NCBI RefSeq assembly: GCF_003790525.1
Contig: NZ_CP033635.1
DNA from: Escherichia coli
Lineage (GTDB): Bacteria; Pseudomonadota; Gammaproteobacteria; Enterobacterales; Enterobacteriaceae
Length of the DNA stretch: 64,000 nt
Reading direction: 5' to 3' (one strand)
A program made the position numbers and the translations under genes. Positions 20,412-50,880 of the stretch are shown piece after piece (the first letter of the stretch is position 1; each line of letters starts with the position of its first letter). The notes beneath the pieces were generated by a model. The model searched no databases, was not told the DNA's origin, and was given only the letters and a program-made list of their open reading frames with translations.

Positions 20412-20495
20412 AGAGCTCTCTCTTAGTTTAATTTCCGCCAGGTAATCAGATGACACGACTGTGCTTCACGCCATCTATTAACATGTACGTCAGTA

Positions 20496-20521
20496 TATGG
20501 GGATGTTTCCCCCACATTCAA
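20496..20521 (-). promoter_or_regulatory. sigma32 heat-shock promoter of lon
   Basis: Minus strand reads TTGAA-N(13-14)-CCCCATAT upstream of lon. Confidence 0.75.
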
Positions 20522-20598
20522 CGCCGAGAATAGAGGAAAAATTAAAGGGGAGATAAAATCCCCCCTTTTTGGTTAACTAATTGTATGGGAATGGTTAA

Positions 20599-47993: not shown

Positions 47994-48479
<486 letters not shown>

Positions 48480-48593
48480 TTACCCTGAACTGACGATACA
48501 ACAAAGGCGCAACGCTTTTGAGATAAAGGATCGATGCTTTCACTGCTTTTACCCTCTACCATTAGGCTAATTGCGACGAGAAAGGGACGACCT

Positions 48594-48724
48594 ATGAATA
48601 CTAACGTTTTTCGACTGCTCCTGCTGGGAAGCCTGTTCAGCCTTAGCGCCTGTGTGCAGCAAAGCGAAGTGCGGCAGATGAAACACAGCGTCAGCACACT
48701 GAACCAGGAGATGACGCAACTCAT
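48594..48724 (+). pseudogene. yajI: yajI lipoprotein gene, 5' fragment interrupted by an IS insertion
   Basis: MNTNVFRLLLLGSLFSLSAC (lipobox) ... EMTQL then the reading frame runs into IS-derived sequence and stops; the remaining ~134 codons resume at ~50473. Confidence 0.75.
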
Positions 48725-48766
48725 TGACATCCTCCACGCCCTGAAGGACGTGGATCCCTGCTACGT

Positions 48767-49975
48767 TCAGGCTGTCGCCTGAATCATTTCGGTGGGTTCC
48801 TGCTTCAACGGGCGGCCTGACTGCACCATCCCTCCACAGGCAAGAACGGCGTGCCCCGCCGCTAAAATGTTACGAGCGCCATTTACATCGGCGTTCGCTG
48901 TATATCCACATACCTGGCATCTGAATTGACTTTGTGACAGGCGATTTTCTTTCGCTGTATGACCACAGCACGTGCAACGCTGGCTTGTGTACGCTGGCGG
49001 AACAGCAAGCACCTGACCGCCACGCCAGAGCTGCTTGTACTCAAGCTGGCGGCGCATTTCATACCAGCCCTGATCCAGTACCGAACGGTTTAAACCTGAT
49101 TTTGCCCGGACATTGCGTCCCGGCTGGCTGACCGTACCCGCTGCTGACTTTGACATGTTGCTGACCTTCAAATCCTCAATGACTATCATTGCGTGGTTTT
49201 TGCTGACGGTCGTTGTGACTTTGTGAAGGTAGTCCCTGCGGATATTTGCGATACGGGAATGCAGTCGCTGTATTTTGCGTTTCTGCTTCTGCCAGTTATT
49301 GCTGAATTCGACCTTGCGGCTTAACTGTCGCTGAAGTCTCGCCAGCGTCTTCTGGTTTTTCTGAAAACTGTTTACAGGCTCAAAGACTGTGCCATCTGAC
49401 AGCGTGGCGAGTTTAGCCACGCCAGCATCCAGCCCGACCATTGATGCTGAAGGGTGAACCGGAGTGGATACTTCACTTTCTGTCTGAATACTGATGTACC
49501 ACTTACCGCAGGACTGGCTGACAGTGACATTTTTCACAACACCCGTGACCTGGCGGCTGTTCCGGTAGCGCATCCAGCCCAGTTTCGGCAGAAAAATACG
49601 GCTGTTTTCCTGATCGAGCTTAACGCCCTGCGGGTAGCGGAATGCATCATTCTGTCCCCGCTTTTTGAATCGGGGAAAAGCAGCCCGCTTCTGGAAGAAG
49701 TTTTTGTAAGCCCGCTCAAGGTCTTTCAGTGACTGTTGCAATGGCTGTGAGGGCGAATCTTTAAGCCATTGCGTTCCAGTGGCGTTTTTCCACTCAACCA
49801 GCCAGGAAGCCATTTTCCCGTAAGGGATGTATTTATTACCGGCCTCATGATTCTCATTCTGAAGCGCCAGAGCACGATTGAAAACGAAACGACATGCGCC
49901 TGCGAAGCGCCTCATTTCATGCTCCTGTTGACCACCGGGTCTTAACTGGAATTTAAATGCCTGTAGTCGTTTCAC
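48767..49975 (-). CDS. tnpB: IS605-family TnpB (OrfB; RuvC-like RNA-guided endonuclease family)
   Basis: 402 aa uninterrupted; N-terminal [13 protein letters not shown]...RFVFN; RuvC-I LDAGV, RuvC-II IEDL, zinc finger CTCCGH...CQVCG, Ruv[12 protein letters not shown]. Confidence 0.85.
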
Positions 49976-49997
49976 AGGTCAAATTATATTTTGGTCT

Positions 49998-50470
49998 GTG
50001 AAAAAAGAAACCGATATCCGGCGTGGAAGGCATTGTGTTTTCCTGATGCATGTTCACCTGGTCTTTGTCCCAAATACCGACGCCAGATTTTTGACCATGA
50101 CGCGACAGAAAAACTACGCACTTACTTTTCAAATGTATGTGCTGATTTTGAAGCTGAACGGGTTGAAATGGATGGCGAACCAGATCACGTCCATTTGTTA
50201 ATTAACTATCCTCCCAAACTGGCGATATCCAGTCTGGTAAACAGCCTCAAAGGTGTATCGGGTAGGTGACTGCGACGAGATCGACCAGATATTGCAGTCA
50301 GGTATTACTACAAAGGCGTTTTGTGGAGTCCTGGCTATTTTGCCAGTAGCTGCGGAGGTGCGCCAATATCCGTCATCCGCCAATACATTGAACAACAGCA
50401 AACACCTGGTCAGGTGGAAAACCGCGCCTTATATCCCCGCCCTGAAGGACGGGGTTTTACGGCGCACCGG
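49998..50470 (+). pseudogene. tnpA: IS200-type Y1 (HUH) transposase TnpA, disrupted by multiple frameshifts
   Basis: TnpA-like segments spread over three frames: HVHLVFVP / PKYRRQIF...HVHLLINYPPKLAISSLVNSLKG / WSPGYFASSCGGAPISVIRQYIEQQ. Confidence 0.7.
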
Positions 50471-50472
50471 AT

Positions 50473-50880
50473 AAAGAAACCGTCAAAATCACTCAGCAAA
50501 ACAGGCTGAATGCAAAATCCAGCAGTGGGGTTTACCTTCTGCCTGGAGCGAAAACACCGGCAAGACTGGAAAGCCAGATCGGTACTTTACGTATGTCGCT
50601 AGTGAATATTACGCATGATACAGATGGCACCACCCTGACGCTACGTATTCAGGGCGAGTCGAATGACCCCTTGCCCGCATTCAGCGGAACTGTTGAATAT
50701 GGGCAAATTCAGGGAACAATAGACAACTTTCAGGAAATCAATTTGCAGAATCAATTGATTAATGCCCCTGCCAGCGTCCTCGTCCCCAGCGATGTTGATA
50801 TTCCGTTACAGTTAAAGGGGATTTCTGTAGAACAGTTAGACTTTGTACGTATCCACGACATTCAACCTGTTATGCAGTAA
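50473..50880 (+). pseudogene. yajI: yajI lipoprotein gene, 3' fragment downstream of the IS insertion
   Basis: In-frame ETVKITQQNRLNAKSS...DIQPVMQ continues the YajI sequence; ORF-track Met at 50593 is internal. Confidence 0.75.

Follow-up and report, generated by a model that had tools for sequence, protein, structure and literature searches.

A probable omega-RNA scaffold for TnpB at the right end of the IS609 element that interrupts yajI in Escherichia coli

Among the guide RNAs of TnpB nucleases, that of ISDra2 from Deinococcus radiodurans has been resolved by cryo-electron microscopy (8H1J, 8EXA) as a 116-nt scaffold of four stems, in which tail nucleotides -6 to -2 form a pseudoknot with an upstream loop (PMC10097598). 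Closer to the subject of this study, an IS609-type TnpB has been purified and listed with a predicted 207-nt scaffold (Table S3) and a TTAT transposon-adjacent motif (TAM; Table S2); that scaffold was chosen by position, as the last 207 nt, and not mapped (PMC12781874). The DNA considered here is a stretch of 64,000 nucleotides from Escherichia coli (contig NZ_CP033635.1; hereafter the window), which is 100% identical over positions 48400-50800 to E. coli SMS-3-5 (NC_010498.1). In it yajI is interrupted by an insertion sequence identified by sequence as IS609, of the IS605 group in the IS200/IS605 family. With a probability that we would set at roughly nine in ten, the right end of this element encodes the omega-RNA (reRNA) scaffold of its own TnpB nuclease. 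The system is a known one and this copy an ordinary member of it, a scaffold for the IS609 family having already been published.

That a guide RNA scaffold lies across the 3' end of tnpB and the right end of the element had been proposed, by position, for the interval 48725-48900 in an initial annotation of this DNA. The proposal is borne out by a 148-nt segment on the minus strand that is conserved, covarying, suppressed in synonymous change, and represented by a published homologue. Relatives were gathered by scanning one genome per species, since an earlier protein homologue search had given only near-identical E. coli proteins and no useful diversity; the scan yielded 57 TnpB loci, mostly from Enterobacterales, at 61-94% protein identity. 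The 148-nt segment is kept in 38 related elements from other Enterobacterales, and all 38 of their 3' ends finish with GGAGGATGTCAA, beyond which the sequences are unrelated. A shared end followed by unrelated flank is the signature of a conserved scaffold joined to a copy-specific guide. In the window the segment spans the last 34 codons of tnpB (369-402), the stop codon, and then 43 nt to the end of the element, whereas the remainder of the interval first flagged (48872-48900) shows no extra constraint. Within the coding part, codons 379-398 (48841-48782) show a pairwise synonymous diversity of 0.06-0.12 in a set of 21 tnpB genes from enterobacteria, as compared with a gene mean of 0.40, and amino-acid identity over these codons is not above that of the rest of TnpB.

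Comparative folding points in the same direction. An alignment of 28 distinct 148-nt ends was folded with RNAalifold; the set includes the published IS609 scaffold (PMC12781874 Table S3) as well as two from ISAba30. The consensus has 38 pairs, with compensatory double changes in 10 of them. The proportion of alignment cells that are paired is 96.9%, and sliding the partners by 1-3 columns lowers it to 37-47%. In covariation score, in paired fraction, and in both counts of compensatory changes, the alignment exceeds all of 500 shuffles; the number of further pair types, which 164 of the 500 reach, does not set it apart. All 38 consensus pairs form in the window scaffold, with no disruptive change relative to the consensus. 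Many of the pairs in the fold are U-G, so that the structure is specific to the tnpB (minus) strand, and folding against shuffles gives a z score of -3.06 for the minus strand and -1.91 for the plus strand. A minimum-free-energy fold of a single 257-nt sequence, which was only slightly better than its shuffles (z -2.25), was set aside in preference to the alignment-based structure, as its long stem has no comparative support.

The distribution of the compensatory changes is informative (coordinates of the individual helices are given in Table 1). They occur at synonymous third codon positions 100-140 nt from the element end, in helices 2 and 4; in helix 2, two such positions carry G-C in 14 sequences and A-U in 12. 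Synonymous diversity in the region of helices 3 and 4 is 0.06-0.10. The hairpin around the tnpB stop codon has one compensatory pair (11 sequences), and among homologues it shows the exchanges AUG/CGU to GCG/CGC and GGC/GCC to GAC/GUC. Helix 8, close to the element end, presumably doubles as the DNA hairpin to which TnpA binds. For the 3' tail there are two pairing options, either a closing helix with AACAUUUU at the 5' end (97.6% of cells paired) or a pseudoknot with the helix-2 loop GGGCA (99.1%). The 28-sequence alignment contains no compensatory changes in either of these and is compatible with both; the loop of helix 2 may pair with the tail as a pseudoknot.

The general plan of the 3' end varies somewhat among the relatives. 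In a clade from Photorhabdus and Klebsiella (L026-L031, L040, L056; 61-63% TnpB identity), the stop-codon hairpin is lacking and the terminal hairpin is longer (…CCCCCTCTTGAGTCACGAAGTGCGAAAGTGGGGG…), with an identical GGAGGATGTCAA tail and the upstream core kept. Some relatives have lost their genes altogether. In the locus from an Arsenophonus endosymbiont (L062:1433-1748), a left end preceded by TTAT is separated by about 316 bp from a right end, and the scaffold lies between the two; a similar gene-less relic of about 470 bp occurs in Photorhabdus (L052, about 1416-1885); and in a further locus (L061, about 1501-1648) only the 148-nt scaffold is left. Gene-less relics that keep the scaffold may be miniature elements resembling PATEs that use TnpB in trans.

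Searches with RNA models gave a divided answer to the expectation, also raised in the initial annotation, that the region should match models of omega-RNA. A purpose-built covariance model, constructed from 19 homologues that include no Escherichia sequence, aligns with all of its 148 positions to 48724-48871 (minus strand) and scores 168.7 bits (E 1.9e-42). The next-best match of this model in the 64-kb window has 14.6 bits, and the left-end hairpin of the element is also among the lower matches. The 14.6-bit match, at 61066-61229 on the minus strand (E 0.03), agrees poorly in sequence and is probably due to chance. With Rfam the expectation is not sustained at the level of the gathering scores. 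In a permissive scan the three best matches, HgcC, RAGATH-18, and sot0042, are all families of TnpB guide RNAs or of RNAs associated with tnpB and all fall on the minus strand, the strand expected, across 48711-48894. The scores are 23.8 bits for HgcC (RF00062; E 0.0084; 48711-48834; threshold 50), 28.1 bits for RAGATH-18 (RF03064; 48797-48840; threshold 44.9), and 17.0 bits for sot0042 (RF02656; 48733-48894; threshold 88), in which only the terminal hairpin aligns well. Membership in any of the three families was therefore rejected, all scores being under threshold. RAGATH-18 is excluded by context as well, because the element has a Y1 TnpA, typical of IS200/IS605 and not of IS607, and the motif lies inside tnpB.

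The partial resemblances to these families nonetheless follow the modules of the IS609 scaffold. RAGATH-18 is the guide RNA of IS607 TnpB, the sotRNAs are transcripts at the 3' ends of tnpB genes, and HgcC has been linked to tnpB through a shared tetraloop motif like that of the right end (PMC4615843, PMC11061315). HgcC and sot0042 are like the IS609 terminal hairpin and tail, and RAGATH-18 is like its GGAG...GAAGCAGGAA core. Unlike the IS609 scaffold, the three families are drawn from archaeal IS1341-type or IS607 elements, and RAGATH-18 RNAs lie outside the open reading frame (ORF) and have been reported only with IS607 TnpB.

Comparison with the two described systems places the window element more exactly. 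The scaffold published for the IS609 type is identical to that of a Pantoea agglomerans element (L022), whose TnpB is 85% identical to the one in the window, and it agrees with window positions 48724-48930 (minus strand) at 174 of 208 positions (84%). The two have in common all helices, the GGAGGAUGUCAA tail, the length class, and the TTAT TAM. They differ at about 16% of nucleotides, with many of the differences compensatory (helices 2, 6, and 8), and the conserved core in the window comprises only 148 nt as compared with the 207 nt of the published scaffold.

Correspondence with ISDra2 extends to the modules of the RNA, as a resemblance read from the sequences without a statistical test and with plain alignment informative only in the 3' third. 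In both elements the scaffold is located at the 3' end of tnpB and the right end, on the same strand, with a guide derived from the flank. The ISDra2 core stem GCUCAU/GUGAGA resembles GCCUGU/GCAGGA of IS609, both RNAs have an inner hairpin after GGAG, and stems 2 and 3 of ISDra2 resemble helices 3 and 4 of IS609, as stem 4 does helix 8. The terminal hairpins have similar loops, of the CUUUAG type in ISDra2 and CUUYAG in IS609, and the tails GAGGUUCAA (ISDra2) and GGAGGAUGUCAA (IS609) share a GAGG(A)U(G)UCAA layout and can each form a pseudoknot with a loop upstream. Differences are also clear: the TAM is TTGAT in ISDra2 and TTAT in IS609; the hairpin of about 36 nt that spans the stop codon in IS609 has no ISDra2 counterpart; tnpA of IS609 is divergent from tnpB, unlike that of ISDra2; and the 5' stem 1/triplex region of ISDra2 is not recognizably alignable with IS609 by sequence.

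The protein that such a scaffold would serve is intact. RefSeq lists it as "RNA-guided endonuclease InsQ/TnpB" (WP_000826423.1), its Pfam domains are OrfB_IS605, Cas12f1-like_TNB, and HTH_OrfB_IS605, and it matches ISDra2 TnpB at E 1.3e-53. The RuvC triad is intact, with D183, E267, and D363 aligned to the catalytic residues D191, E278, and D361 of ISDra2 TnpB (PMC10097598), and the CxxC...CxxC motifs of the zinc finger are present.

In the mechanism that we favor, transcription of the tnpB strand would run past the end of the element into yajI, so that the RNA would carry a guide of about 16-20 nt, TGAGTTGCGTCATCTCCTGG, taken from the flank. The omega-RNA would probably be cut from the tnpB mRNA by TnpB, which would then bind the scaffold and cleave DNA in which TTAT is followed by sequence matching the guide. 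The target of cleavage would be an empty yajI site, for example the joint that remains in the donor after excision or an uninterrupted allele that has come in, and recombinational repair from an occupied copy would restore the element. As tnpA is a pseudogene in the SMS-3-5 copy, excision would need TnpA supplied in trans. Transcription, processing, binding by TnpB, and cleavage of the empty site are all carried over from the TnpB family, in which TnpB systems of the Karvelis/Altae-Tran type form the basis for each of these steps. Meers et al. (doi 10.1101/2023.03.14.532601) and Nety et al. (PMC10278001) are further sources for the family mechanism.

Transcripts overlapping the tnpB 3' end have been reported from K-12 RNA-seq data (PMC4615843), and literature searches on RNA expression from IS609, insQ, or ydcM gave nothing beyond that report. 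A terminator-like hairpin whose tail is rich in T occupies 48686-48701 on the minus strand, 23 nt past the right end and within the 5' fragment of yajI, and could set the 3' end of a primary read-out transcript. Read-through past this hairpin would head into nrdR (48443-47994, same strand).

The initial annotation had further held that the right end abuts yajI and that a guide would be templated from the yajI side. The element boundary is at 48724 and the yajI 5' fragment ends at 48722, which agrees with the former. The latter is upheld by position, as unrelated flank begins where the scaffold stops at the boundary; the guide, from 48723 to about 48704, would lie outside the interval first flagged. 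In the empty allele of strain PCN033, the minus strand has TTAT and then the exact TGAGTTGCGTCATCTCCTGG 20-mer, the insertion point being read as TTAT|TGAGTTGCG. Across species, TTAT or TTAC forms the flank 5' of the left end in related elements.

This flank and the 4 nt just 5' of the hairpin at the left end covary, in that AAAA accompanies TTAT in 9 of 10 elements and AAAG accompanies TTAC in 5 of 6 (left ends L006-L044; window 50440-50474). The covariation is the internal "guide" rule of target choice known from the IS608 type, and it follows that the motif preference of TnpB must track the choice of target.

The state of the yajI site was counted among 5426 complete E. coli genomes. It is occupied by IS609 in 340, including a 98.4%-identical copy; it is empty and matches TTAT plus 25 target-side bases exactly in 1864; and it is empty with one mismatch in 3195. 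In the sole case of the last kind that was checked, HH97, the mismatch falls in the motif (TGAT, with a Gln instead of a Lys codon). The HH97 site was considered as a contradiction of a TTAT target and dismissed, given the TTAT allele in PCN033 and the 1864 genomes. Judged from the motif, the TGAT allele should be refractory both to IS609 insertion and to cleavage by TnpB. IS609 right ends are present in 4936 of the 5426 genomes, including K-12 and BL21; the K-12 copy is about 98% identical and adjoins ydcO.

Several points weigh against assigning the right end to an omega-RNA. A promoter scan found no sigma-70-like promoter on the minus strand near the scaffold, although none would be expected for an RNA processed out of tnpB mRNA. 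PMC12781874 describes an in vitro assay of an IS609-type RNP, and its text says of the IS609-type TnpB only that another orthologue was most active. No Rfam family reaches its gathering score at the scaffold, and related sequences can exceed a shuffle control without any structure. With tnpA dead in this copy, the homing cycle cannot start from the copy alone. Finally, the terminal hairpin and tail are also DNA signals for TnpA, so that their conservation alone is no proof of a role in RNA. Carried further, this last point becomes a distinct explanation, in which the conservation reflects transposition signals in DNA (the right-end hairpin bound by TnpA and the cleavage site) together with coding constraint on tnpB, and no functional RNA exists. 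Helix 8 and the GGAGGATGTCAA tail do resemble the left-end hairpin and sit where TnpA of IS200/IS605 elements acts on single-stranded DNA, an action established at the ends of IS608 and ISDra2. Strand specificity is also compatible with DNA, because G-T pairs can form when it is single-stranded. Such signals would not account, however, for compensatory changes and a near-absence of synonymous variation that reach 60-140 nt inward through helices 2-4, at third codon positions and well past the subterminal hairpin. The layout also agrees with the part of the ISDra2 omega-RNA that is bound to protein in the solved structure, and relics and miniature elements keep exactly the 148-nt block; an explanation in terms of DNA signals is for these reasons very improbable.

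It is scarcely credible that the hairpins are nothing but a 3' stabilizer or terminator of tnpB mRNA. Stable GC-rich hairpins do occur at and after the stop codon, and the terminator-like hairpin at 48701-48686 (minus strand) follows 23 nt past the end, but the terminator scan of 48724-48871 found no U-run after any scaffold hairpin, and termination leaves unexplained both the covarying multi-helix architecture inside the ORF and the invariant tail. A different kind of alternative accepts the locus as an omega-RNA gene by descent and holds that it is idle in SMS-3-5, the pair of TnpB and omega-RNA being unexpressed or without a target and drifting toward decay. The frameshift and stop codon in tnpA are in keeping with this, as is the failure of the minus-strand scan to find a promoter-like site near the scaffold, and the presence of the insertion in 340 of 5426 genomes, one with a 98.4%-identical copy, suggests that it is old and inherited. 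Yet tnpB has kept its full length and every catalytic and zinc-finger residue, the scaffold is undamaged with 38 of 38 pairs able to form, two further places in SMS-3-5 that match IS609 could supply TnpA, and the 1864 genomes with a cleavable allele are a source from which it could enter by recombination. Idleness thus seems unlikely, and a scaffold serving the TnpB of this element remains our preferred interpretation of the right end.

If that interpretation is correct, its value lies mainly in confirming an annotation: a guide-RNA gene that is unannotated in RefSeq and falls under the Rfam thresholds would stand at one end of an insertion sequence that is very common in E. coli. The 148-nt alignment and structure could seed an Rfam-type family for IS609-like omega-RNAs of enterobacteria, and the chromosomal sequence targeted by the native TnpB of SMS-3-5 would be stated exactly. 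Endogenous pairs of TnpB and omega-RNA would also be present in the laboratory E. coli strains in which heterologous TnpB editors are tested. More speculatively, the hairpin at the stop codon might couple termination of tnpB translation to folding or processing of the guide RNA, or the polymorphism of the yajI motif might reflect selection for alleles immune to insertion of IS609 and to its cleavage; we regard this pair of ideas as a long shot. If the coupling were true, the terminating ribosome would gate the conversion of mRNA into omega-RNA, and so act as an autoregulatory switch between TnpB synthesis and the arming of TnpB.

The element that houses the scaffold is 1747 bp in length (48724-50470), and its top strand is the minus strand of the window, on which the order is TTAT, left-end hairpin, divergent tnpA, tnpB, and the right end. 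Its junctions were set by comparison with the uninterrupted yajI allele (PCN033, L004) and on the plus strand read ...GCAACTCA / element / ATAAAGAAAC...; the right end at 48724 is fixed both by this allele and by the 38 related elements, which lose similarity right after GGAGGATGTCAA. Assignment to IS609 draws on near-identity (about 98%) to copies whose tnpA is named by RefSeq "IS200/IS605-like element IS609 family transposase," on a Y1 tnpA divergent from tnpB, on the absence of a target duplication, and on insertion after TTAT. Features annotated by RefSeq across the locus are nrdR, a yajI fragment, InsQ/TnpB, the tnpA pseudogene, the second yajI fragment, and tsx, and in genomes with an empty site the two yajI fragments rejoin to an intact gene. 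Relative to the intact IS609 copy L003, tnpA has two lesions, a 1-bp deletion near 50070, in GGTCTTTGTC-CCAAATACC (about 50060-50078), and a TTA-to-TGA change that creates a stop at 50267-50269; the corresponding RefSeq remark is "frameshifted; internal stop."

Table 1. Positions of the IS609 element's parts, its predicted omega-RNA scaffold, and the interrupted host gene in the window
Feature	Position	Strand	Remarks
tnpB (insQ-type)	48767-49975	-	402 aa, intact, GTG start; stop codon 48769-48767
Conserved core of the predicted omega-RNA scaffold	48724-48871	-	148 nt; 5' AACAUUUUAGCGG ... GGAGGAUGUCAA 3'; ends at the element's last base
Helix 2, hairpin GCGGCG-GGGCA-CGCCGU	48846-48862	-	Within codons 371-377
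Helix 3, CCUGU/GCAGG	48840-48836 with 48803-48799	-	Encloses helix 4; region 48799-48840 is the RAGATH-18-like core
Helix 4	48831-48825 with 48816-48811	-	3 pairs with compensatory changes
Extra hairpin (helices 5-7)	48757-48792	-	Holds tnpB stop codon; covarying among homologues
Helix 8, subterminal right-end hairpin UCCACGU-CCUUCAGG-GCGUGGA	48733-48754	-	7 pairs, 4 with compensatory changes
Predicted guide-templating flank TGAGTTGCGTCATCTCCTGG	48704-48723	-	16-20 nt; antisense to yajI at about codons 37-43; single occurrence in window
yajI 5' fragment	48594-48722	+	RefSeq annotation NC_010498.1; codons 1-43; adjoins element right end
yajI 3' fragment	50470-50880	+	RefSeq annotation NC_010498.1
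IS609 left end	50391-50470	-	Aligns with left ends of related elements
Left-end subterminal hairpin CCCCGTCC-TTCA-GGGCGGGG	50435-50454	-	Weakly picked up by Rfam and purpose-built models
TTAT target site and TAM	50471-50474	-	Immediately 5' of left end on top strand
tnpA (Y1 transposase) pseudogene	49983-50407	+	Divergent from tnpB; Pfam Y1_Tnp fragments in two reading frames

Elsewhere in the window, the only Rfam matches at gathering level are the small RNA sraA at 20483-20578 on the plus strand and the small signal recognition particle RNA at 2735-2831 on the minus strand, both of which are ordinary E. coli genes.

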